Of a stretch of DNA of 64,000 bases, positions 12,303 to 28,948 are shown one piece after another. Position 1 is the stretch's first letter; the number at the start of each line of letters is the position of its first letter. Location: contig JAHPZH010000004.1 in NCBI GenBank assembly GCA_019058315.1, positions 96,001 through 160,000 of the forward strand, written 5' to 3'. This stretch comes from Candidatus Helarchaeota archaeon. GTDB taxonomy: Archaea; Asgardarchaeota; Lokiarchaeia; Helarchaeales; RDOG01. The notes below the pieces were generated by a model. It worked only from the letters and a program-made list of their open reading frames with translations, was not told the origin of the DNA and ran no database searches. The position numbers and the translations under genes are program-made.

Positions 12303-13133
12303 ATGTTACGTAAACGAAAAAAATCAGAACGATTAGGATTTTTTCAGAATCAGATATTATTTTTACTAAAATATAGAAGCATGCATGGATATGAGCTTTT
12401 AGAAGTTTTAAAGAAAAAAGGTTGGCGTCCATCCACTGGATCGTTGTATCCTGCTTTAAGAAAACTCGAAGAAAAAGGATATATCGAATCATTTGAAAGT
12501 TCTCAATTACGAGGACCAAAAAAACGAAAAAATTACATACTAACTGTAAAAGGTTTGGATTATATACAAGAGAATTTCTTTTATGACATCACTCAAGATC
12601 TACTTAGAGCTAGATTATACCTAAATCCTTTTCAGGAATTGGTTAATAATTTAACACCATATTTTAATAAGGGAGGTTTAGTTTTAGATTTGTTAAATTA
12701 TATAGACCCAAATGCAGTCCTAAATTATCTACTTAAAGGAAACATCCCAAAAAATATTAAATTTATGAAGGTTTATGAATTTTATAACCTAATTAATGAA
12801 AATAAAATGCAAAATTGGCTTCAAATTTTATTATTTTTTCCATTTTCAATGACTTATAGTGAATTTGGTGTTTCAGCAGTAGAAAAATATCAAGAATTGT
12901 TTAAAAAAATCGAGAAATTCCTCACTGATGATGGGAAACTTTGGATCATTGATGTAGAATGGATTGAAGCACATTTTTTAGTGGATGCATTGACTTTTTT
13001 AGCGACTGGTGATATAAAACAATTGGCTTATACATTTGATGAGATTAAAAACCTATTATTATCAATTAATTTTAGAAATATAACAAAAATCAGTTCAAAA
13101 AATGGTATCCTAGTTATATCCGCAGATAAATAG
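12303..13133 (+). CDS. PadR-family regulator with degenerate methyltransferase-fold C-terminal domain, copy 1
   Basis: HGYEL, GSLYPALRKLEEKGYI, RKNYILT.KG; C-terminus FLTDDGKLWIID...ISADK. Confidence 0.8.
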   Translation: MLRKRKKSERLGFFQNQILFLLKYRSMHGYELLEVLKKKGWRPSTGSLYPALRKLEEKGYIESFESSQLRGPKKRKNYILTVKGLDYIQENFFYDITQDLLRARLYLNPFQELVNNLTPYFNKGGLVLDLLNYIDPNAVLNYLLKGNIPKNIKFMKVYEFYNLINENKMQNWLQILLFFPFSMTYSEFGVSAVEKYQELFKKIEKFLTDDGKLWIIDVEWIEAHFLVDALTFLATGDIKQLAYTFDEIKNLLLSINFRNITKISSKNGILVISADK

Positions 13134-13154
13134 GTAAGGAATATGTCATAAAAA

Positions 13155-13985
13155 ATGTTTCGCAAACGAAAAAAATCAGAACAATTAGGAGTTTTTCAGA
13201 ATCAAATATTGTTCTTATTGAAATATAGAAGCATGTATGGATATGAGCTTTTAGAAGTTTTAAATAAAAAAGGTTGGCGCACATCGACTGGATCGCTTTA
13301 CCCTACTTTAAAAAAACTCGAAGAAAAAGGATATATCAAAACGTTTGAAAGTTCTCAATTACGAGGACCAAAAAAACGAAAAAATTACATACTAACTATA
13401 AAAGGTTTGGATTATTTACAAAGGAATTTCTTTTATGATCTTACTAAAGACATTTTTATGACTAAATTATATATAAATCCTTTTCAAGAAGTGGTTAATA
13501 ATTTAACCCCATATTTTAATAGAGGAGGTTTAGTTTTAGATTTATTAAATCATGTTGATCCAAAGGCAATTCTGAATCATCTCCTTAAAGGAAATATCCC
13601 AAAAAATATCAAATTCATGAAAATTTACGAATTTTATAACTTAATAAAAGAAAATAAAATGAATATGTGGTCCCAAATTTTATTATACTTTCCATTTTCA
13701 ATGACATATCGTGATTTTGGTGGGTCTCCTGTAGAAAGATATCAAGAATTGTTCAATCATATTAAGAATTTCCTCATTGATGATGGAAAACTTTGGATAA
13801 CTGATACAGAATGGATTAAATCACATTTTTTGGTCGACGCATTGACTTTCTTAGCGACTGGTGATACAAAACAAATAGCATATACATTTGATGAGATTAA
13901 AAGCCTATTATTATCTATTGATTTTAAAAATATAACAAAAGTCAGTTCAAAAAATGGTATTCTTATTATATCTGCAGATAAATAA
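13155..13985 (+). CDS. PadR-family regulator, copy 2 (tandem paralog)
   Basis: Same length (276 aa) and collinear high identity with copy 1. Confidence 0.8.
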   Translation: MFRKRKKSEQLGVFQNQILFLLKYRSMYGYELLEVLNKKGWRTSTGSLYPTLKKLEEKGYIKTFESSQLRGPKKRKNYILTIKGLDYLQRNFFYDLTKDIFMTKLYINPFQEVVNNLTPYFNRGGLVLDLLNHVDPKAILNHLLKGNIPKNIKFMKIYEFYNLIKENKMNMWSQILLYFPFSMTYRDFGGSPVERYQELFNHIKNFLIDDGKLWITDTEWIKSHFLVDALTFLATGDTKQIAYTFDEIKSLLLSIDFKNITKVSSKNGILIISADK

Positions 13986-16225: not shown

Positions 16226-17041
16226 TTAGATTAGTTCTTTGACCTTCTCTATAATTTTAGGCAAAATATCTCCAATTTTACCATGAATTACAATATCTGC
16301 TAGGTAGTCCTTGCCAGTCTCGTCTAAATTGATTATAATCAACTTTGCTCCCGAACTCTCAGCAATATGGGGATAACCTGCTGCTGGGTAGACTGTTAAT
16401 GTTGATCCAAGAATTATCATGCAATCACATCGCTGGCTATATGCTTGTGCCTTCATTATTGCATCTGGGGGTAAAGATTCACCAAATAAAATTGTGTCAG
16501 TTTTCATTAAACCATCACAATCTTCTCTTATGCATAAAGGTGGCAATTCTCCATTTCTAACTCTATTAATAACACTCTCTCTGGTTTCTTTTAATCCACA
16601 ATCCATACAGTGACAACCTACAACGTTTCCATGAAGTTCTATAACCTCACAATTTCCCGAATTTAATTGTTGTTGTGCTTTTTGATGAAGATTATCGATG
16701 TTCTGGGTTATTAAAGCTTTTAATTTTCCAATTTTTTCTAATTCTGCTAAGGCTATATGTCCTTCGTTTGGTTTACGGCTTAAAATATCTCCCATGCCTC
16801 CCTTACTTTTCTCTTCATTTTCTGGTAGGTATCTCGACCAATATCTGGAAGGATCTTCTAAATAGTATTCAATAGTTGCTGTCTTCGGATCAACTTTTTT
16901 CCATAATCCATCTTTACCTCGAAAATCGGGAATTCCACTTTCAGTTGAAATTCCAGCTCCAGTAAAAGCAACTATATAATTAGAATCTCTTATTAATTTC
17001 GCCGCAAGCGCAATTCTTTTTTCAATTTCTTCTTCATCCAA
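16226..17041 (-). CDS. cobB: Sir2-family NAD-dependent protein deacylase
   Basis: TGAGISTESGIPDFRG, ITQNIDNLH, ELHG, Zn-binding Cys pairs. Confidence 0.95.
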   Translation of the reverse strand: MDEEEIEKRIALAAKLIRDSNYIVAFTGAGISTESGIPDFRGKDGLWKKVDPKTATIEYYLEDPSRYWSRYLPENEEKSKGGMGDILSRKPNEGHIALAELEKIGKLKALITQNIDNLHQKAQQQLNSGNCEVIELHGNVVGCHCMDCGLKETRESVINRVRNGELPPLCIREDCDGLMKTDTILFGESLPPDAIMKAQAYSQRCDCMIILGSTLTVYPAAGYPHIAESSGAKLIIINLDETGKDYLADIVIHGKIGDILPKIIEKVKELI

Positions 17042-17059
17042 AACTTACACCTAAATATT

Positions 17060-18505
17060 TTATTCTAAATTATCAGTCAAATTTCTCAATTCAATTCTAA
17101 TCTGCTTTAAAGCTTTATTTTTTAATTTTCTATTGACTTCAAAACTATATGTCCTAGTTAATTGGAGAAATTTAAGATCATTTTCATCTAAAATAACATC
17201 ATGTTTTGTTTTAAATTTCTCTAAATGAATATCAATTTCCTGATCTTTAATAACTTTATCAATATCTTGATACAAATTTTTATTCCTATCAATAATTTGT
17301 CCTAATCGTTCATTAAGATATTTTAAATAAGAATTAATCGAATTTAACTTTTTAATTCTATTCTCTTTTTTATAATAATCCAACAGGTATTTATCAATTT
17401 CAAAGAATATTTTTAATTCCCCAATAACCTCCATCATAGCTAAATTTTCTTTAATCCTTAAAATATTTTTTTCAATTAAAGTTTTATTAAATAAATTCAT
17501 AAAATTTGAAAATATTAGCTCCCCTGATTTTTTTCGCCATTTTTGGGTCTCATATAATTTCTTATAAGGTATATTTCTGGTATATGTTATTATTGAATTC
17601 AAATAATTAGTTTTAAAGAATTTTTTTATAAAAAATTTTAAATTTTGGGGAAATATTTTAGTAATTTCTTTTTCAAAATCAAAAAAATGTTCAAAAAATT
17701 GTTCTATTGATGAAATATTTAATAGATTTTCTAGTTTTTCTTGTAATTTTATACTAGGTTCTCCGATAAATTCTCTAGGAAATAAATTTAATATCGGATT
17801 AAAGGATAAATCACTTTTCATGAAAAAAATTATAAGACTATATAAAATCTTTCCAAAACCAAAGGAATACGAATAAAAGATATCTTTATCTTCATTTATA
17901 GACAACTTATGCAAATCTGGGAATGAATCAAGATAATTTGATTGTTCTATAAGTTTTTGAATATAAAATCTCAGTTCGACTTTATTAATATTAAATAATT
18001 TCGAAAAATTGGAATAACTTATCAAATCTTTTATTTCCAAATTATAGTTTAATTGATTTAATAATAAAAATAATTTAATTTTACAAAAAAAATCCTTATT
18101 TTGAATTAAATTAGGAATGTTATTTTTTATATAAGGCCAAGTTAAAAAGATAATAAATTTTCGTTCTACATTTAAGGGATACTTGGTTTCAAGTTTCTCA
18201 ATTAAAGGAAAAAATTCAAACTCAATATCTTTTATATCAATTTCTAATTTAATAATTGGCTCTTCTACCTCCAATCGAATTTCTTCTATACCTTTATCGG
18301 TTATACTATATTTTATTCTTTTTCTAGTCGCTTCGTTAATGGTTTCTATTTGAATTAATTCTTTATTCTTTAATTGTTTTAAATAATGAAAAAAAGTAGA
18401 ACGAGGAATTTTTTTATCAAAAAATTTTTCCAAATCACGAGAATATGTAGTTCCTCTATTATAGAGGTATTTTAAAATAATTTTTTCTTTATTTTTTGTG
18501 ATCAA
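17060..18505 (-). CDS. Hypothetical protein with N-terminal winged helix-turn-helix
   Basis: RSTFFHYLKQLKNKELI...YSITDKG; long helical remainder; GAGG upstream. Confidence 0.6.
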   Translation of the reverse strand: MITKNKEKIILKYLYNRGTTYSRDLEKFFDKKIPRSTFFHYLKQLKNKELIQIETINEATRKRIKYSITDKGIEEIRLEVEEPIIKLEIDIKDIEFEFFPLIEKLETKYPLNVERKFIIFLTWPYIKNNIPNLIQNKDFFCKIKLFLLLNQLNYNLEIKDLISYSNFSKLFNINKVELRFYIQKLIEQSNYLDSFPDLHKLSINEDKDIFYSYSFGFGKILYSLIIFFMKSDLSFNPILNLFPREFIGEPSIKLQEKLENLLNISSIEQFFEHFFDFEKEITKIFPQNLKFFIKKFFKTNYLNSIITYTRNIPYKKLYETQKWRKKSGELIFSNFMNLFNKTLIEKNILRIKENLAMMEVIGELKIFFEIDKYLLDYYKKENRIKKLNSINSYLKYLNERLGQIIDRNKNLYQDIDKVIKDQEIDIHLEKFKTKHDVILDENDLKFLQLTRTYSFEVNRKLKNKALKQIRIELRNLTDNLE

Positions 18506-19187: not shown

Positions 19188-20642
19188 ATGATTAGGGGTA
19201 AGTTGTTTATGCCGGAAGATAAGAATTCAATAATTAAAAGGATAAGGGATGTATGTGAAAAAAAAAGAAAAGAATTTATAGAAATATTTACTAAATTTAT
19301 AGAAACACCTTCAATATCTGCTTGGAAAGAGCCAGAAACGCTTTATAAAATTGTTGAAAAAGCAAAAACTTTATTAAAATCATGTGCTGTATCTACAATT
19401 ATCCATGATGAATATGATTCCAATTATCCATTGTTAACCGGTGAAACCAATTCTTCTGAGGCCACAAAATCAAAAAAAATCTTTTTTTTAGGTCATTTAG
19501 ACGTCCAACCTCCTGGCGAAATTGAAAAATGGACAAAACTTTCAGATCCTTTTAAGCCCCTACAAAAAGAAGGCAAACTATATGGGAGAGGTAGTTTGGA
19601 TACAAAATCACAAATTTCTGCACAAATTATTGCGCTTAAGATTCTAAATGAATTAAAAATCAAGATTAAAGCGCTTGATTTCTTGTATACTACCGATGAG
19701 GAAATTGGTTCATTAAAATCAACGTTAAAATTTTTTGAGAAATTATCAAAAAATAAATTCGATACAAATGATTATCATGGTGCAATTAACGGAGAAAATA
19801 CAAATGAACGTATTGTTTTAGGCTGCAAAGGAATCATTAAATTGAAATTTATTGCAAAAAACCCTCTTGGAAGGATGCATTCAGGAAAATCAATGTTTCA
19901 CGCTTATCATCCAATCATAAATTTAGCAGAATTTCTCTCTAAAATACGGAATGAAAATAAAATTCTTATTGAGAAATTAAATTTATTGAATCCAAAAATT
20001 AGAATTATCAAGGATAAAGATTTAGTAAATAAAAAATATGAAAATACTAATGAAATACTGCTTTCTGAAAACGGGTTAAAGTTAGCTGTAGGTTCAAAAT
20101 TATGGGATGATTTTATCTCTGCTGGATGGAGTACTGAACAGATCGGAGAGAAATTTGCGTCAATTAGCTTTAATCCTGATAATTTTCTATCCGGAAGCAA
20201 GGAAAGTCAAACTATAGTTCCAGACGAAGCTATATCCGAGGTAGATATACGAATTCCACCTAAAATAGCCCCAACCAAAATAATAGAAATATTAAAACAA
20301 ATAACTGACCAATTTCCTTATATTACTATGGAAATTATTATGCCAAATTCTTCTGATATTAATAAATATTTTCAAGGTGCATTCACATCTCCAGCAAATC
20401 CCTTTGTTCAAAAATTCTACCAGAATTGTATGTTTGTATATGATCAGCCTAGAATTTTTATGCCATTTAGCTCAGGTACAAGTGATGACCGATTTATAGA
20501 AGTATTAGGGCTCCCACACGTGAAGTTTGGTGCTACAGGTCAAAATAACCATGGATACGATGAATGGGTTGATTTATCAAGTTTTTTTCGTGTTATTCAA
20601 GTTTACACGTTAATGATGGCAGATTTAGAATTAGATCAATAA
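19188..20642 (+). CDS. M20/M25/M40 metallo-hydrolase (ArgE/DapE/dipeptidase-like)
   Basis: GHLDVQP, YGRGSLD.K, DEEIGS, NHGYDE metal-binding motifs. Confidence 0.9.
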   Translation: MIRGKLFMPEDKNSIIKRIRDVCEKKRKEFIEIFTKFIETPSISAWKEPETLYKIVEKAKTLLKSCAVSTIIHDEYDSNYPLLTGETNSSEATKSKKIFFLGHLDVQPPGEIEKWTKLSDPFKPLQKEGKLYGRGSLDTKSQISAQIIALKILNELKIKIKALDFLYTTDEEIGSLKSTLKFFEKLSKNKFDTNDYHGAINGENTNERIVLGCKGIIKLKFIAKNPLGRMHSGKSMFHAYHPIINLAEFLSKIRNENKILIEKLNLLNPKIRIIKDKDLVNKKYENTNEILLSENGLKLAVGSKLWDDFISAGWSTEQIGEKFASISFNPDNFLSGSKESQTIVPDEAISEVDIRIPPKIAPTKIIEILKQITDQFPYITMEIIMPNSSDINKYFQGAFTSPANPFVQKFYQNCMFVYDQPRIFMPFSSGTSDDRFIEVLGLPHVKFGATGQNNHGYDEWVDLSSFFRVIQVYTLMMADLELDQ

Positions 20643-20671: not shown

Positions 20672-22054
20672 TTAATTAGTTTTATTAATAGGTAAATATT
20701 TGTCCCATTGATTAAATGACAGTATTTCATCATATTTATTACAAATTATATTAAAAATCTGACATGTTGCACAAAATATATCGACTATATCTTCATCGTT
20801 TAAATCAAGAATTTTGAGAATTTCAGGAGAGATCCCCCAAGCTCTTTCAAAGTCAACTCCCCAATCACCACATATATTTACAACAAATTCATCCTTTGTA
20901 AATTTGCCTGTATGAGGAGCTTTTGCTATACGTATACTTCCTCCCACTGGAACAATATTTCCATCTTCTTGAACTACATTAATTCGGAGATCAAATGTCC
21001 TCTTTGAATTTTTCCAATTAATTAATTTGAATTGAGCCATTTCCTGGATAGTATATGGAAAAGGATTTCGTGATGTATTAAATTTTTGATGAAAATCAGA
21101 AATTGAATCTTCAATTATTTTTGGAATTTGTTGGATAGGGGTATTTGTAATAAAAGGTTTAATTCCAGCACCACCTGAACCTCCAAATGGTTTTAAAACA
21201 AAATTCTTATTCATATTGTTAATCGATTTCATTATTTCTTCAAGTTTGTTTTTAGAAAACACTCTTGCAAATATAAGGGGGTGAATTCGATATTTTTCTA
21301 AAATATCGTATCCCATGTATATGGCTACATATGTACTTGCCTTATCATCAGTCACAGGATAAATTGGATTAATAATTTTAGTTTTAATGCCTCTCCAATT
21401 GTCCTTTTGAAAATCTTTATCAGGGAATCTTCTTACAATACCATCTCCGATAAGAACATGTATTTTATCATCTAAAAACGTAAAATATTGATTTTTATAA
21501 TCCAAAAATTCAAATAAATTTTGATAATTAGAATAAATTAAGATAATATCATCAATACTTTTTTGTGGGTTATTATAATTGAAAATATTATATATTCCTA
21601 CTCTAATTCCCTCTTTCTTATACATATATCTCAAATACTCGCCTAACATAATTTTTTCTTGATAAAGGTCGTCTTTAGGTAAGGTTCCTATGAGTACTCT
21701 TTTCTGCTTAACACCATTAATATTGTCTATTGCACTCTTAAAGGCATTAAAAATCATTTCTATCTGATCAAATGTAGTAGCGAAGAGTCCTCTTGTGGAA
21801 CCTCCATTAGTTTCTAAAATTACGAATTTCCTTTGATTATTATGTTCTGTAACCATAAAATCGACAGAGCCTACATAGAATAATCTTTTATCAGGAAGTC
21901 TCGGCCAATTGCCCATTTTTTTTAGAGCTTTTTCACGAATCTGATCTACAAACTTATTATCTTGCTTTTGTCGTGTTGGTTCTAATGAGGTTAAATCTTT
22001 ATCAAAATATTTAGATAAATGAATGATACGATCTAATTCGTTTTTTAAATTCAT
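20672..22054 (-). CDS. Circularly permuted ATP-grasp ligase (TTL/YheCD-like motifs)
   Basis: N-terminal VDFMV...ILETN; later DDK, VLKPFGGSGGAGI, IQE, FDLR, RIA...VVN. Confidence 0.72.
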   Translation of the reverse strand: MNLKNELDRIIHLSKYFDKDLTSLEPTRQKQDNKFVDQIREKALKKMGNWPRLPDKRLFYVGSVDFMVTEHNNQRKFVILETNGGSTRGLFATTFDQIEMIFNAFKSAIDNINGVKQKRVLIGTLPKDDLYQEKIMLGEYLRYMYKKEGIRVGIYNIFNYNNPQKSIDDIILIYSNYQNLFEFLDYKNQYFTFLDDKIHVLIGDGIVRRFPDKDFQKDNWRGIKTKIINPIYPVTDDKASTYVAIYMGYDILEKYRIHPLIFARVFSKNKLEEIMKSINNMNKNFVLKPFGGSGGAGIKPFITNTPIQQIPKIIEDSISDFHQKFNTSRNPFPYTIQEMAQFKLINWKNSKRTFDLRINVVQEDGNIVPVGGSIRIAKAPHTGKFTKDEFVVNICGDWGVDFERAWGISPEILKILDLNDEDIVDIFCATCQIFNIICNKYDEILSFNQWDKYLPINKTN

Positions 22055-22096: not shown

Positions 22097-23305
22097 CTAA
22101 ATTTTTAAGACGTATTGAGGGATTAAACGTGCTAAAATATCGGCCATACCTAGCTCAACAGTCTTTAAGACAACACCCTTGCCTCGATAATCAAATTCCA
22201 TCTCTCGCACTTCGGAACAAATTTTGCTACCAACATCATTTGCCATATCTAAGATAAAATATCGTTCTCCTTTAATCTGAATTACTTCAACTACATTAAC
22301 AACGTCTGAAAATGAATAACCCCCACCATGAGGTGCAATATTAAGATTTTTCAGTCTATTTAAGACCCCTATTTTTTCTGCTCGTTTTTCAAATCCCAAT
22401 AGTTCGATTATTTCATCATCTAAATTTGGTTTACCCGTCATTAAAAATGCTGGTAAATCAGCTCTTAATGCTATAGGAAAGGGACTTGAATTTGCATCAC
22501 TAATATCATGGGCACCAAGCATTAATTCATTATAATTTAAAAGACCTTGATGTGTAATATTATTAATTATTTTATATTTTCCAAAAATTGCTTCTGCAGC
22601 CAATTTTCTTTTTTCTTTAGCGAACCATTCAGCATATTTATAAAAATTATAATATTCTTTAACATCTGAATCGATTAAAACATGTAATTTTCCAAAAATT
22701 GTTTTAACTATTTTTGCTCGTTCTCGGAGAGCTTCACTTTTATCAAAGTATAATCCTATTCCCTTCTCTGTTTCATTACGTAGTTCTGATACCGATCCAT
22801 GCATAATAAATGCATATTCTGGTAAATCTACATCTAGGGAGCGTTTAACAACCTTAAATAAGTCAATAAAATGATTCCCCTTATACATATCCCATTCAAT
22901 TTTAAAATTATCTATATATAAATCTTTTTTAACTTCATGAATTGCTTCAATTAATTCAGAGGGCTTTGGAAGTTCCTCTAAAGCTCCAACTAACATCCCA
23001 CAAGCATTAGGTTTACTGTCTAAAATTATAAATTTATCCTTTCCAGAACCCCAAGATAGTTTTCCTCCATAGCCAAATCCCGCTTTCCAACGTGCAGTAT
23101 TTCGGGTTATAGTTTCGTCAGGAGTTGAAACGAAAGTGGCGTGTGGTGAAAAACCAAATTCTTCTTGTGCCAAATGAATTTTTGCCAAGCCATACTTCAT
23201 GTTCGCTCGGCATAAATAAGAAGCTCCATCACCTACTCCAGTAGAAAAATAATGTCTTTTTGCCCGTTTTAATAATTCAGTCTTCTCTAAACTTACAAGT
23301 GTCAT
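22097..23305 (-). CDS. Divergent RtcB-family GTP-dependent ligase
   Basis: Ordered RtcB-like motifs PD..GFGYGG, NACG, GNHF, MHGS, THQ, PHGGG, terminal ARLIP..VLK. Confidence 0.75.
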   Translation of the reverse strand: MTLVSLEKTELLKRAKRHYFSTGVGDGASYLCRANMKYGLAKIHLAQEEFGFSPHATFVSTPDETITRNTARWKAGFGYGGKLSWGSGKDKFIILDSKPNACGMLVGALEELPKPSELIEAIHEVKKDLYIDNFKIEWDMYKGNHFIDLFKVVKRSLDVDLPEYAFIMHGSVSELRNETEKGIGLYFDKSEALRERAKIVKTIFGKLHVLIDSDVKEYYNFYKYAEWFAKEKRKLAAEAIFGKYKIINNITHQGLLNYNELMLGAHDISDANSSPFPIALRADLPAFLMTGKPNLDDEIIELLGFEKRAEKIGVLNRLKNLNIAPHGGGYSFSDVVNVVEVIQIKGERYFILDMANDVGSKICSEVREMEFDYRGKGVVLKTVELGMADILARLIPQYVLKI

Positions 23306-23329: not shown

Positions 23330-23911
23330 TTAAAAAATTTCCAATTGATTCTTAAGCTCTATTAAATAATTTTTAATAATTTTTGAATTTAATTCCACAA
23401 ATTTCTTAGCTTTATTACTATAAAAATTTGGAATTTCGTTAATACGCCATTCTAACTTTTTAATCATACAATCAAAATCTTTTTTTCGTAAGGCACAAGA
23501 TAACAAGGCTCTCATCAATCCTATAGGACCGAAAAGATCCATACCATCTGCATCATATAAGACTTTTGCTTCCAAACTTTCAGGTTTTTTTTCAGCATAT
23601 TGTCTACTATGGCATAAAATACAGTCTGTAATTTTTTTTATTGTATTTTTGTCAATTCCTTTCGATAATAATATTTTTTCAGTCATTTCGGCACTAATTA
23701 CATTATGCTTAGTACGATCAATCTTATGTCCAATATCATGTAACAATATGGAACATTGAATTATATCCCAGTCAGCATTAACTTCTTTATTTATCATCAA
23801 AGCATATTTTAATAATCTTTCAATATGCGGCCATCCATGTAAGATATCTTTCGGCATATTTTCTATTGCAAACTTTTTGACTTCTGGAATTAATTTATTT
23901 ATATTAATCAT
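23330..23911 (-). CDS. HD-domain phosphohydrolase
   Basis: HG..H..R, LLHDIG, H...SA, CH, LYDAD.MD..G..G. Confidence 0.9.
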   Translation of the reverse strand: MININKLIPEVKKFAIENMPKDILHGWPHIERLLKYALMINKEVNADWDIIQCSILLHDIGHKIDRTKHNVISAEMTEKILLSKGIDKNTIKKITDCILCHSRQYAEKKPESLEAKVLYDADGMDLFGPIGLMRALLSCALRKKDFDCMIKKLEWRINEIPNFYSNKAKKFVELNSKIIKNYLIELKNQLEIF

Positions 23912-23921
23912 CGTGATTTTA

Positions 23922-25535
23922 CTAATTTAAATTAATCCAATATTGACCCATTAATTGCGAAGAATTTGTTTTTACAAGTACTTTATTGACTTCTACAAGT
24001 CCATCTTCATAACAATCAATGACATTATATGTGTTCAGATCCATATCCAAATAATCTCTAGAAGATAAAGTGCCACAAGTTGAAAATACTGTATCTTCCA
24101 ATTGAATTGAAAAAGAGATATGATTATGACCTGTAAGAATAAAATGAATATTATTTTCTGGTTCTGTAAAAAATTTTATTACATTTCCTGCATCACTTAA
24201 CATATAATTAAATTTGGTTTTTGGATGGGGAATTAAATTATGATATAAAGCTACGATATTAATTTTATTTTTGGGTTTTTCTTTGAATATTTTAATTACT
24301 TCATTCATTCTTTTTCTACCTATAATCCCACTCTCAATTGCAGGATCTATAGAATTTATACCAGCAATTCTTATTTTATCATTCTCATAAAAAGGTTCTA
24401 AAGTTCCAATAAATTCTGGAAATAAATCCCAGCCGATCGTTTTTAAATCATTATCCCCTGGAATTATAATCTTATGTGCCATAATTTTATCTAATTCTGC
24501 TACAGCTTTCTTATATTCAACATATTGATTAGCATTAGTAACATCCCCCGTGTGAACAACAAGATCAGCATTTAATGTATTTATTTGTTTAACAGCCTTT
24601 TTATACATATCTTCTCTAAAATTGCCAGAAGAGAAATGTGTATTACCAATATGCGCTATTCTAAAATTTAATTTCTTATCAAATTTTGGGGGTGTTGGAT
24701 AAAAAACTCTATTTATATATCTTCCCCGTTTTATTCTCTCCCCATTAATTAATTTTTTAGTTCTAAATAACACTGCCTTTTCAAAAATATCTAAAATAGT
24801 ATAAGTAAATAATTCCTTATATCGGGTTTTATTGCAAGAAAATGTTCCGCCGTTAAACATCACCAATTCTTCTTCGCCATCTGAACATGAATAAACATTA
24901 GAAATATGTCGATGCCCATTTAATATTAGATCAATATTAGTTTCCAAAATCATTTTTAAAGCATCACCACTGTCAATTACAGCAGATCTTTCACGTCCAG
25001 TTAGCGGAATAGGCAATAAATGGTGGTGAAAACAAAAAATTCTAGTCTTATCGGAATTATTTAAAAATTGTTCTCGAGTTTTTTCAATAGCCCTCCTACC
25101 AATTTTTCCAGAATCTTGATCCGGGATAGAACTATCAATTCCTATTATTAAAAGATCTTTTTCGTCAATTTTAAACGTCCTGGAATCAAAAAATTCTTCA
25201 AAAAGCAAATAACCAACGTTCTTTGCGTCGTGATTCCCTGGGATACAAAAAAATATATCTTTATTGATTGGTTTTAATAATTCTAAAGCATATTGATAAT
25301 CTAAATAGGTTCCACCGTGTGTTAAGTCTCCTAAATGTATTATATAATCCACTTTTTTAATTTTATTTATTTCCTCAATACCTTTATTATATATCTCCAA
25401 ATTAAAAATAGGACTATTTGAAATATGTGAATCTGAAATTAAAATAATTCTTTTTGGTTTACCTTCTAATGGAACTGAATCTATTTTCTTCTTATAACGT
25501 GCATAATGGGGAAAATATTTAGTATTAATCTTCAT
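23922..25535 (-). CDS. Tandem two-domain calcineurin-like (CpdA/Icc-type) metallophosphoesterase
   Basis: Domain 1 SDSH/GDLT/PGNHD/HHH/GHRH; domain 2 GNTH/GDVT/PGDND/YHN/GHNH. Confidence 0.9.
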   Translation of the reverse strand: MKINTKYFPHYARYKKKIDSVPLEGKPKRIILISDSHISNSPIFNLEIYNKGIEEINKIKKVDYIIHLGDLTHGGTYLDYQYALELLKPINKDIFFCIPGNHDAKNVGYLLFEEFFDSRTFKIDEKDLLIIGIDSSIPDQDSGKIGRRAIEKTREQFLNNSDKTRIFCFHHHLLPIPLTGRERSAVIDSGDALKMILETNIDLILNGHRHISNVYSCSDGEEELVMFNGGTFSCNKTRYKELFTYTILDIFEKAVLFRTKKLINGERIKRGRYINRVFYPTPPKFDKKLNFRIAHIGNTHFSSGNFREDMYKKAVKQINTLNADLVVHTGDVTNANQYVEYKKAVAELDKIMAHKIIIPGDNDLKTIGWDLFPEFIGTLEPFYENDKIRIAGINSIDPAIESGIIGRKRMNEVIKIFKEKPKNKINIVALYHNLIPHPKTKFNYMLSDAGNVIKFFTEPENNIHFILTGHNHISFSIQLEDTVFSTCGTLSSRDYLDMDLNTYNVIDCYEDGLVEVNKVLVKTNSSQLMGQYWINLN

Positions 25536-27172: not shown

Positions 27173-28060
27173 TTATTGACCTGTATCAATATATTGCGTT
27201 TTAAATCCTTCTTCACTCCCATATATATTTAAATAAACGTCTTTAATAAATTCTTTCTTATATTTAAAAATTAGATTTGGATCATCTGTAAGTAAGACAA
27301 AATCCATTCTAATATGTGATAGAACATCACTAACATAGTATTCCGGGGAATAATTTAATAATTTTTCATATTTTTTACAAATTTCATCTAATTTTTGGAC
27401 GGTTTTAGCTGGGTTTTTTTTAGGAAGATCTAGAACAAACCAATATCTTGTAATTTCTTTTTTAAAGAAAATATCTTTAAATTTTTCCTTATCTGCAGTT
27501 TTTAGCATATCTTTTGTAATTGTAAAATTAATTATTTCAGCATTGATTATTGATAAATTAGAAATCATATGTACAGCTCCAGAAGGTCTTCTTAATTTCG
27601 TATAATTTAAACTCACTCCTTCAACAATTCCCTCTTGATTCATTATTTGTATAAGATCTCCTAATCTATAAGGTCTCGTGAATAATATGTATAAACCAGC
27701 AATAAAATTCTGTAAAATAGTAGTTGTTGAAAAAGCAATTATTGAACCTGTGATTGCCGAAATTAAAATTGCGACCTCTGGAGGAAGCCCTCCAGGTACT
27801 AAACTAGCTGATGCAGCAGTAAATAAAATAACTATAAAAATAATAATCGCCAAACGAAATATTATTTTTATACCATTATAAAGATGTAAAGAAAATTTCT
27901 TTCTTATTATAACTTTTTTAATAATGAATAGTATTATTGTAGAAATTATTAAAACTGCTACAACAATTATAGTGAAATATATCCAAGAAACCAAATAATC
28001 CCAAAATGTTGGAGGAGGAAAGATACGAACTGTAAAAAGTTGAGAGATCCATTCAAACAT
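27173..28060 (-). CDS. MscS-family mechanosensitive channel protein
   Basis: Three TMs, LQNFIAG...RPYRLGDLIQI...G.V..V.L.YT. Confidence 0.85.
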   Translation of the reverse strand: MFEWISQLFTVRIFPPPTFWDYLVSWIYFTIIVVAVLIISTIILFIIKKVIIRKKFSLHLYNGIKIIFRLAIIIFIVILFTAASASLVPGGLPPEVAILISAITGSIIAFSTTTILQNFIAGLYILFTRPYRLGDLIQIMNQEGIVEGVSLNYTKLRRPSGAVHMISNLSIINAEIINFTITKDMLKTADKEKFKDIFFKKEITRYWFVLDLPKKNPAKTVQKLDEICKKYEKLLNYSPEYYVSDVLSHIRMDFVLLTDDPNLIFKYKKEFIKDVYLNIYGSEEGFKTQYIDTGQ

Positions 28061-28948
28061 TTATTTGGAACCTCCACTTTTTTCATATACGGAAAACCAG
28101 ATATCTTTTTTAAATTCTGGTAATAAATCCATAGCAGTATTCATGTCTTCTGAAGATATTATCATCCTAATAGTTAATCGCCAATATATATTTGCAAAAA
28201 CATATCTAGGTTTATGTCCAAATTTTGAGACCCATCGTTCACAGACTTCATCTAAAATCCTTATTAAATCCTTTGGATTTTTATCAAGTTCAAATTCCAT
28301 AAGGAAAAAATAATATGAAATTTTTCTTTTTTGAATGGCTTTAATTAAAGTTTTTTTTATTTTCTCTTTTTTTGAGACTTCGAATGCTTTAATATCTTCT
28401 TCATAAACCGTTTTATAATTTAATAAATTTGCATTCATGGCAACTTTATTTGGAATTTTATGAATATTACCAATCCCGACTGTATCCCTTAAAATTGTGT
28501 AGTTCATACCTATTTCAGTTACAAAACCTTCAATTTCTCCTATTTTTATAAAATCTCCTACACTATAAGGTCTAGAACCTATCATAAAAAATCCAGCAAT
28601 AAGGTTACCAACTATGATTGCACTCGCAAGACCTATTGCCGTTGAAAAGATTGTCGTAAAATTCATCAACGTTTCATAATCCATAATACCAAGTGTGACT
28701 AAAACAGAAAATAGCACTATGAAAATTACAATCATCCTAATGAAATTAAGAAAACCACTAAATGCCTCATGCGGGAATTTTCGGGTCTTTTTAAATGATC
28801 TCTTAATAATATAACCCGTAATTTCTACAGATAATAGAATAGTAACGGCTATCACTATTACAAGAAATAAATTACTAATGAAATCATAATAAACTCTTTT
28901 GTTTATTTCATCATATAATGCTATAATTTGATTTATATCAACTGCCAA
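28061..28948 (-). CDS. MscS-family mechanosensitive channel protein (paralog)
   Basis: GNLIAG...RPYSVGDFIKIG..EG.V..IG..YT, IPN; GGAGG RBS before TTG. Confidence 0.85.
   Translation of the reverse strand: MAVDINQIIALYDEINKRVYYDFISNLFLVIVIAVTILLSVEITGYIIKRSFKKTRKFPHEAFSGFLNFIRMIVIFIVLFSVLVTLGIMDYETLMNFTTIFSTAIGLASAIIVGNLIAGFFMIGSRPYSVGDFIKIGEIEGFVTEIGMNYTILRDTVGIGNIHKIPNKVAMNANLLNYKTVYEEDIKAFEVSKKEKIKKTLIKAIQKRKISYYFFLMEFELDKNPKDLIRILDEVCERWVSKFGHKPRYVFANIYWRLTIRMIISSEDMNTAMDLLPEFKKDIWFSVYEKSGGSK

Follow-up and report, generated by a model that had tools for sequence, protein, structure and literature searches.

The gene considered here lies on the minus strand at 20672..22054 of a 64,000-nucleotide window, the whole stretch of DNA that was analyzed (Candidatus Helarchaeota archaeon, contig JAHPZH010000004.1, positions 96,001 to 160,000), and it encodes a protein of 460 amino acids (aa) that we call the ligase. 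The ligase is a circularly permuted ATP-grasp protein in which the metal hairpin, instead of standing at the C-terminal end, comes ahead of the pre-ATP-grasp domain. We consider it probable that it is an active permuted carboxylate-amine ligase, likely with a small amine-bearing substrate, and that it is paired with a dedicated amide hydrolase. The family to which it belongs is unnamed, lies within a known structural class, and is without a Pfam or NCBIfam model or a characterized member. An original prediction, made from the sequence alone, had described the gene as a permuted peptide ligase with affinity to tubulin-tyrosine ligase (TTL) and YheCD.

Fold, Catalytic Residues, and Circular Permutation

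From the N terminus onward, the motifs of the ligase are FYVGSVDFMV (residues 59-68), FVILETN (77-83), VLKPFGGSGGAGI (286-298), IQE (336-338), FDLR (354-357), RIAK (375-378), and VVN (391-393). In an alignment of the window ligase with 31 homologues at 38-89% identity (alignment A1, 32 sequences), D65, E81, N83, K288, G291-G295, G297, E338, D355, R357, R375, and N393 are 100% conserved, and because the catalytic residues are invariant across all 32 sequences, the motif order is more than a chance arrangement. These positions supply the ATP-grasp lysine, the flexible glycine-rich loop, and the acidic residue that binds adenine and ribose (K288, G291-G295, G297, and E338), as well as the acidic/acidic/Asn triad that binds Mg2+ from two adjacent strands (D65, E81, and N83). 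Further invariant positions are specific to the family, namely E133-K134, I202-G205, R208-R209, D236-K238, and P333-T335. The D...E.N block, the lysine of the KP motif, and the arginine of DLR are retained in relatives at 17-19% identity (alignment A4). The gene and its parts are listed below with the evidence for each in parentheses.

20672..22054, minus strand: whole ligase gene, 460 aa, stop codon at 20672-20674 (open reading frame, 430 homologues, AlphaFold2 [AF2] model, fold matches)
21911..22054, minus strand: N-terminal helical region, residues 1-48, with R40 invariant and Q31 and F35 nearly so (A1 and A4; model helices 3-17, 25-28, and 33-47)
21785..21892, minus strand: displaced Mg/phosphate-binding beta-hairpin, residues 55-90, FYVGSVDFMV...FVILETNGGSxRG with D65, E81, and N83 (invariant columns; model strands 61-71 and 74-84)
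21365..21712, minus strand: pre-ATP-grasp (Rossmann-like) domain, residues ~115-230, with E133-K134 and IGDGxxRR at 202-209 (unpermuted structures begin aligning at 115-118; invariant columns)
20918..21361, minus strand: ATP-binding core, residues 232-379, with DDK at 236-238, K288, the Gly-rich loop at 291-297, E338, D355, R357, and R375 (sub-threshold Pfam matches; invariant columns)
20675..20917, minus strand: remaining C-domain and terminal helices, residues 380-460, with K387, E389, N393, G396, and R404 (A1, AF2 model, structural alignments)

The AF2 model of the ligase, built on A1, has a mean predicted local distance difference test (pLDDT) score of 85.9 and a predicted TM-score (pTM) of 0.89. 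The N-terminal metal block of the model is held by a beta-hairpin of residues 61-71 and 74-84, and the chain stops where a canonical ATP-grasp would run on into this hairpin. A Foldseek search of the PDB was led by the eukaryote-type glutathione synthetases (GS) 8fbz, 3kak, and 2hgs (E values of 1e-9 to 1e-7), followed by 3k1t, YjfC/YgiC, 3n6x, Cp1B, glutathionylspermidine synthetase (GspS), and trypanothione synthetase; the Foldseek probability for the ATP-grasp fold is 1.00. VIA, a second structural search that is independent of Foldseek and gives sequential alignments, matched dozens of ATP-grasp enzymes with Z scores of 8-14, which identifies the three-domain ATP-grasp fold. Permuted enzymes align over model residues ~2-414 (5oeu, Z 14.4; 5oet, 14.2; 3k1t and 3kaj, 13.2 each; 1m0t, 12.8; 2wyo, 12.1; 3n6x, 11.9; 7uka, 11.7), whereas unpermuted ATP-grasps align only from ~115 to ~440 (Ddl, Z 11.0; ArgX/LysX, 10.6 and 9.4; TTLL11, 9.4; RimK, 8.7; TTL, 8.5; GshB, 8.0; TTLL6, 7.9). 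The hairpin at residues 55-90 is covered only by the alignments to permuted ATP-grasps. Because the permuted structures cover residues 2-414 and the unpermuted ones start only at ~115, the circular permutation is shown directly.

At the sequence level, no Pfam or NCBIfam model reached its cut-off with the ligase, nor did any Pfam model with the 32 members of A1, and the NCBIfam scan of the ligase gave nothing meaningful. The core's best matches below threshold were to ATPgrasp_ST (23.2 bits against a cut-off of 31.4, residues 232-378) and to YheCD (PF14398; 15.8 bits against a cut-off of 26.8, residues 276-379, profile positions 42-150 of 255), and the YheCD match never extends to the C-terminal half of the profile, which corresponds to the displaced part. 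Across the alignment, sub-threshold matches to ATPgrasp_ST occurred in 32/32 members, to YheCD in 30/32 (best E value, 1.6e-6), and to GSH-S_ATP in 22/32, the partial alignments to these three models covering the lysine, the glycine-rich loop, and E338. CP_ATPgrasp_2 (PF14403) was touched by 4/32 members (best E value, 6.4e-4); among these, P0014 scored 12.8 bits against a cut-off of 32, and its residues 319-381 align weakly and co-linearly with the end of the profile (312-374 of 374). One member touched CP_ATPgrasp_1 (PF04174), again below threshold, and one, P0003, touched the TTL model (PF03133) with an E value of 0.06 and 13 bits against a cut-off of 20.1. The window ligase itself gave zero Pfam matches to CP_ATPgrasp_1, CP_ATPgrasp_2, or TTL, and none of the 32 members matched GSP_synth (PF03738), GSH_synth_ATP (PF03917), or GshA (PF08886) at E <= 0.1.

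A word-indexed search returned 430 homologues, all of them unnamed and all Asgard-labeled where labeled, and many bear a precomputed PF14398 label. Searching the PDB with the single sequence of the ligase yielded spurious matches only, and a PDB profile search yielded nothing significant, the entries PurD (E 0.19) and TTLL7 (E 0.64) matching in the lysine region only. With hhalign, A1 matched the core of a YheCD/TTL-annotated Asgard protein of 389 aa at a probability of 91.7%. When A1 was un-permuted and compared with unpermuted Asgard ATP-grasps, the matches were again to the core only (91.7% for the YheCD/TTL type and 38% for the RimK type); un-permuting gave no longer match because ~130 helical residues part the R...N segment from the hairpin. 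In the ESM Atlas, unnamed clusters lead, followed by a YheCD/TTL-annotated Thermoproteota cluster (0.95, rank 10) and by PF08886 GshA clusters (0.92).

The architecture is that of permuted small-molecule ligases, and the core sequence is weakly YheCD/ST-like. The permutation may be shared with GS and GspS or may have arisen independently. What the original prediction had said of the fold has held up well: every motif it listed was found where it had been placed, with residues that are invariant in A1, the complete catalytic set of an ATP-grasp enzyme is present, motif order and structural alignments agree on the permutation, and structure prediction, which had been proposed as a check, gave permuted ATP-grasps as the only full-length fold matches. 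A specific affinity to TTL, by contrast with the fold, found no support, since a single member touches the TTL model and the TTL and TTLL structures (Z 7.9-9.4) come no closer than Ddl, LysX, and RimK. The claimed affinity to YheCD is weakly supported: the core matches to ATPgrasp_ST and YheCD and the hhalign result point to it, but no cut-off was reached, and un-permuting the sequence, another proposed check, left the match confined to the core. The prediction had set ordinary CP_ATPgrasp and GspS families against a TTL-like identity; the best full-length folds are indeed of the CP, GS, and GspS type, but by sequence the ligase falls in none of those families. A literature search returned no paper linking the ligase family to Asgard archaea, TTL, or GS.

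Distribution, Hydrolase Partners, and Upstream Operon

The family is small: when 1.84 billion cluster representatives (50%-identity clusters) were searched exhaustively with HMMER, only 128 clusters were recovered at E <= 1e-3. Among 301 Asgard genomes, the ligase is present in 65, comprising 63 of the 68 genomes of one Lokiarchaeia family (GTDB family f4), 1 of the 7 of family f5, and the window genome, and it was not found in the six other genomes of the window genome's order. The tree resolves the Asgard ligases into two well-supported subclades, A (the window protein, P0001, P0003-P0026, and L002) and B (the f4 group). Relatives at 17-19% identity form a second tier that retains the permuted layout and key residues (A4) and that includes a Cyanobacteriota metagenome-assembled genome (MAG), Noviherbaspirillum, bacteria from soil metagenomes, the green alga Tetrabaena socialis, and one GPP34 fusion. 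The algal relative (P0312, PNH11051.1) is 602 aa long and is encoded on a 376-kb contig, and the fusion protein (P0301) has 674 aa with an N-terminal GPP34 (GOLPH3-like) domain. The original prediction had held that such an enzyme would be notable in an Asgard genome. The gene is an Asgard gene, but with its near-restriction to one Lokiarchaeia family and its distant relatives in bacteria it does not qualify as a clear eukaryotic signature protein.

Neighbor clustering covered 80 related loci, which are arranged most often as FmdE, a GNAT or alpha/beta hydrolase, a Clp1_P kinase, the ligase, and a gene for a 389-aa protein without a Pfam domain. The last of these lies directly 3' of the ligase in 49/80 loci with a median gap of 2 nucleotides (nt), and it also follows the subclade-A ligases in L002 and L003. 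Its product looks like a divergent M14-type carboxypeptidase on model-based comparisons: it resembles M14/AstE clusters in the ESM Atlas (feature score of 0.95, 183 shared features, TM 0.57-0.62), NLNRFW and DFHE are invariant, the first zinc motif (HxxE) reads QHNE, and the best PDB profile match is to carboxypeptidase N at the NR motif (E 0.41). The M14-like gene was not found in the window genome (94% complete) by single-protein or A3-profile searches. There, the ligase is flanked by an M20 gene on one side and by three further genes on the other.

19188..20642, plus strand: ArgE/DapE-like M20 metallo-deacylase, convergent with the ligase (Pfam Peptidase_M20 and M20_dimer; NCBIfam ArgE/DapE below threshold)
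22097..23305, minus strand: compact divergent RtcB-fold protein, 402 aa, 42 nt upstream of the ligase (AF2 and Foldseek; genomic context, not shown to act with the ligase)
23330..23911, minus strand: HD-domain phosphohydrolase (Pfam HD; beside the RtcB-like gene in genome G002 too)
23922..25535, minus strand: tandem calcineurin-like metallophosphoesterase (Pfam Metallophos in two stretches; present in G002 too)

The M20 protein of the window has only 8 homologues at E <= 1e-60, and two of them lie beside subclade-A ligases. In one case, consecutive accessions reproduce the window gene order (NHI93912, M20; NHI93913, ligase; NHI93914, RtcB-like), and in another, the ligase paralogues MFX0098540 and MFX0098541 are two accessions from the M20 protein MFX0098543, with the RtcB-like gene on another contig. 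These paralogues (P0020 and P0025, MFX0098540.1 and MFX0098541.1) represent a tandem duplication of the ligase within one MAG, the M20 gene following two positions on. The M20 enzyme is probably the hydrolase partner of the ligase in subclade A. Because the partner is M14-like in the relatives and M20 here, the constant neighbor of the ligase appears to be a metallo-amidohydrolase of two unrelated folds, and this exchange argues that the amide bond, not the RNA-processing neighbors, defines the module. Among the bacterial relatives, an MFS transporter gene lies directly 3' of the ligase in 23 of the 32 loci analyzed (MFS_3/MFS_1; e.g., L137 2451-3698 and L142 8416-9888), and neither an RtcB-like nor an M14-like gene was found nearby in these 32 loci. 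A few bacterial loci also carry an M81 (MlrC-like) peptidase.

On its other side, the ligase ends a run of four same-strand genes (metallophosphoesterase, HD, RtcB-like, and ligase) separated by gaps of 10, 24, and 42 nt. The AF2 model of the RtcB-like protein has a pLDDT of 92.9, and RtcB structures fill its top 16 Foldseek matches (E ~1e-7). The motifs in its sequence are altered (PNACG, GNHF, HGS, THQG, and PHGGGY). Its family counts 1203 unnamed homologues at 50-70% identity, all of them lacking a Pfam domain, in archaea and some Planctomycetota, and the gene is present in 136 of the 301 Asgard genomes, including 63/68 of f4. In the f4 genomes compared, the RtcB-like gene and the ligase are on different contigs every time. 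Their adjacency is a feature of subclade A, seen in the window genome, NHI93913/NHI93914, P0001/P0140, three further shared contigs, and L002, where two genes intervene. Genome G002, from the same order as the window genome, carries the phosphoesterase, HD, and RtcB-like genes at 65, 57, and 71% identity without the ligase (L189 5104-8632), so the upstream trio is older than the ligase's arrival, and by gene order the ligase appears to have been appended to this older operon. The order of the trio looks like an RNA-end healing-and-sealing cassette. A complex prediction for the ligase with the RtcB-like protein scored 0.00 (mark, 0.32), which gives no indication of whether the two bind.

A Clp1_P-type polynucleotide kinase homologue is found upstream of the ligase in 72/80 loci (e.g., L029 6612-7838), all from one taxonomic family, with a median gap of 96 nt and insertions of up to 2.5 kb. 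The window genome's Clp1 homologue is unlinked to the ligase (contig C3, L084 6882-8162). Clp1 as a functional partner was downgraded on account of this one-family linkage, the larger gaps, and the lack of linkage in the window genome. In f5 Lokiarchaeia, whether or not the ligase is present, genes for a pyruvoyl arginine decarboxylase and deoxyhypusine synthase come directly after the RtcB-like gene (L190 4918-7864; L192 4727-7640; L002 1013-3842). A polyamine role, suggested by the position of these two genes between the RtcB-like gene and the ligase in L002, was dropped because f5 genomes without the ligase have this same gene pair behind the RtcB-like gene.

Proposed Function and Alternative Explanations

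Amide (peptide-type) ligation is the most likely chemistry of the ligase, and here the original prediction of a peptide ligase agrees with the complete catalytic set and the permuted ATP-grasp fold. Following the chemistry of the superfamily, ATP would activate a carboxylate as an acyl-phosphate, which an amine would then attack to form an amide. The substrate would most likely be a small molecule, such as an amino acid, a short peptide, or some other metabolite that bears an amine, and the genomic context suggests that the amide would be cleaved or trimmed by the adjoining metallo-hydrolase, the M20 enzyme in the window genome and the M14-like enzyme in most relatives. A small molecule is likelier than a protein as the substrate because the characterized full-length fold neighbors are all small-molecule ligases (GS, homoglutathione synthetase, GspS, trypanothione synthetase, and Cp1B) and because an exporter-type MFS gene accompanies the distant relatives.

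Several points weigh against this assignment. The M14-like label draws on language-model and predicted-structure similarity plus motifs, and the first of those motifs, HxxE, is altered to QHNE. The M20 gene is convergent with the ligase and not co-transcribed, and the two are documented side by side in just three genomes. For the main clade, synteny is drawn from one taxonomic family and is therefore inflated by shared ancestry, and the bacterial MFS context belongs to relatives at only 17-19% identity. The nature of the partner does not exclude a protein substrate, since M14 and M20 enzymes also trim protein C termini, and the small-molecule assignment is provisional.

One alternative, which we think unlikely though worth serious attention, is that the ligase adds amino acids such as Glu or Gly to the C terminus or a side chain of a protein, as TTL/TTLL, RimK, and LysX do, and that the M14-like or M20 enzyme removes them, as cytosolic carboxypeptidases (CCP) do in the tubulin code. 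A ligase beside a carboxypeptidase-type hydrolase fits a writer/eraser layout, and the sub-threshold ATPgrasp_ST and YheCD matches of the core, the YheCD/TTL-annotated Asgard protein at 91.7%, and the similarly annotated ESM Atlas cluster at rank 10 all lean this way. The TTL and TTLL structures, however, are no closer than other ATP-grasps and align with the core only, and the TTL model is touched by just one of the 32 members. Moreover, no candidate substrate gene is conserved beside the ligase-hydrolase pair, the bacterial relatives pair with an MFS transporter, and the characterized full-length fold neighbors act on small molecules. A more specific version of this idea, in which an archaeal writer/eraser for protein amino-acid tails would consist of the permuted ligase and either hydrolase, M14-like or M20, as interchangeable partners, possibly acting on a component of the RNA-end-processing machinery that recurs beside it (RtcB-like, Clp1-like), strikes us as distinctly improbable.

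We would give slightly less credence again to a role in RNA-end processing, in which the ligase would work with the RtcB-like, HD, and phosphoesterase proteins in the window genome or with the Clp1-like kinase in the main clade, acting on an RNA end or modifying one of those enzymes. The close same-strand spacing at the 3' end of the trio, the ligase and RtcB-like genes adjacent or on one contig in at least five related contigs and L002, and the Clp1_P kinase directly upstream in 72/80 loci are what make this explanation attractive. Yet in f4, where the ligase and the RtcB-like gene each occur in 63/68 genomes, they sit apart in every pair compared, and G002 maintains the trio without any ligase. 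The Clp1 gene is separated from the ligase by a median of 96 nt, with insertions of up to 2.5 kb, against 2 nt for the M14-like gene, and it is unlinked in the window genome; the catalytic set, for its part, is of the carboxylate-amine ligase type. Least credible is a true thiol-peptide synthetase, whether for glutathione or of the gamma-glutamylcysteine ligase type. Structurally, eukaryotic GS and 3k1t, a 'putative gamma-glutamylcysteine synthetase', match best, and PF08886 GshA clusters appear in the ESM Atlas at 0.92, but identity to the GS and 3k1t chains is only 9-14%, and the GSH_synth_ATP, GSP_synth, and GshA models found nothing at E <= 0.1 among the 32 members. The family is also nearly confined to one archaeal family and paired with a hydrolase, an E. 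coli-type GshA was not found in the window genome, and GCS2 matches there are weak and partial.

Wider Context and Comparison with Known Systems

The ligase adds one family to a small class of permuted ATP-grasp ligases that includes eukaryotic GS, glutathionylspermidine and trypanothione synthetases, CP_ATPgrasp, and a few others. The near-universal presence of the ligase in one Lokiarchaeia family and its consistent coupling to a hydrolase suggest that the archaea closest to eukaryotes make an amide metabolite or, with lower probability, a protein tag. To this picture the window adds an M14-like-free form, in which the ligase appears as an addition to the older phosphoesterase-HD-RtcB-like operon and is paired with a rare M20 deacylase. 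If the product is a small molecule, it would be a new metabolite for Asgard physiology; if it is a protein tail, the system would parallel the tubulin code in a prokaryote.

The remaining neighbors in the window are unrelated to the ligase and comprise Sir2, a 481-aa winged helix-turn-helix protein, an enoyl-CoA hydratase, a geranylgeranyl-reductase-like protein, PadR paralogues, an FGGY kinase, MscS paralogues, and CorA. The 481-aa protein (17060-18505, minus strand) has a weak N-terminal winged-helix (HxlR/PadR-like) signal followed by ~400 residues without a family, and its gene adjoins that of the Sir2 deacetylase (16226-17041). Two pairs of tandem paralogues are present, one of 276-aa PadR-domain proteins at 12303-13985 (plus strand) and one of 295-aa MscS-type channel proteins, 27% identical, at 27173-28948 (minus strand). 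In the related loci, a conserved protein of ~105 aa without a family match is encoded ~3 kb from the ligase in 65 loci (e.g., L025 5514-5840, minus strand), and it begins with MAKKK, continues as an extremely acidic body rich in D/E, and closes at the C terminus with a zinc-ribbon-like motif, CxxC...C...GC, that ends in a basic tail.

Among known systems, the eukaryote-type GS group has the same chain order as the ligase, with Z scores of 9.9-14.4 (2hgs/8fbz, 3kaj/3kak, 1m0t, and 2wyo; the nematode GSS-like effectors 5oeu/5oet; the fungal Cp1B, 9cjn). In human GS, the E-x-N metal motif lies in the N-terminal half, and the permutation of the human enzyme was reportedly described by Polekhina and colleagues in 1999. 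The ligase family differs from this group in its low identity (9-14%), in its own motifs (IGDGxxRR, DDK, and PYTIQE), in its hydrolase gene partner, and in its narrow archaeal range. The 3k1t structure from Methylobacillus flagellatus (PF08886 'GshA') gives the best TM-score of all matches, 0.48/0.51, and a Z score of 13.2 over residues 42-445, but it is only 11-12% identical, and its own function is only putative, the entry having been deposited as a putative gamma-glutamylcysteine synthetase. The permuted amide ligases CP_ATPgrasp_1/2 (3n6x), GspS (2io7), YgiC (7uka), YjfC (7uk6), and trypanothione synthetase (2vpm) align over residues 4-421 with Z scores of 10.7-11.9, the GspS-type folds lying at 10.7-11.7. 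GspS likewise joins a ligase with an amidase, whereas the ligase family is without an alpha-E, transglutaminase, or CHAP partner.

TTL, TTLL, and YheC/D have core motifs in common with the ligase (KP..G.G.G, QE, FDLR, and R...xxN), and pairing with a carboxypeptidase-like partner resembles the logic of TTLL and CCP. No tubulin-like or other candidate substrate gene was linked to the ligase among the neighborhoods analyzed. Unlike the ligase, these enzymes are not permuted, and their structures align only from residue ~115 onward (to ~443 for TTL and TTLL), with Z scores of 7.9-9.4. Should the proposed writer/eraser exist, it would be a functional analogue of the eukaryotic TTLL/CCP system, but one built on a permuted scaffold of the glutathione-synthetase type.

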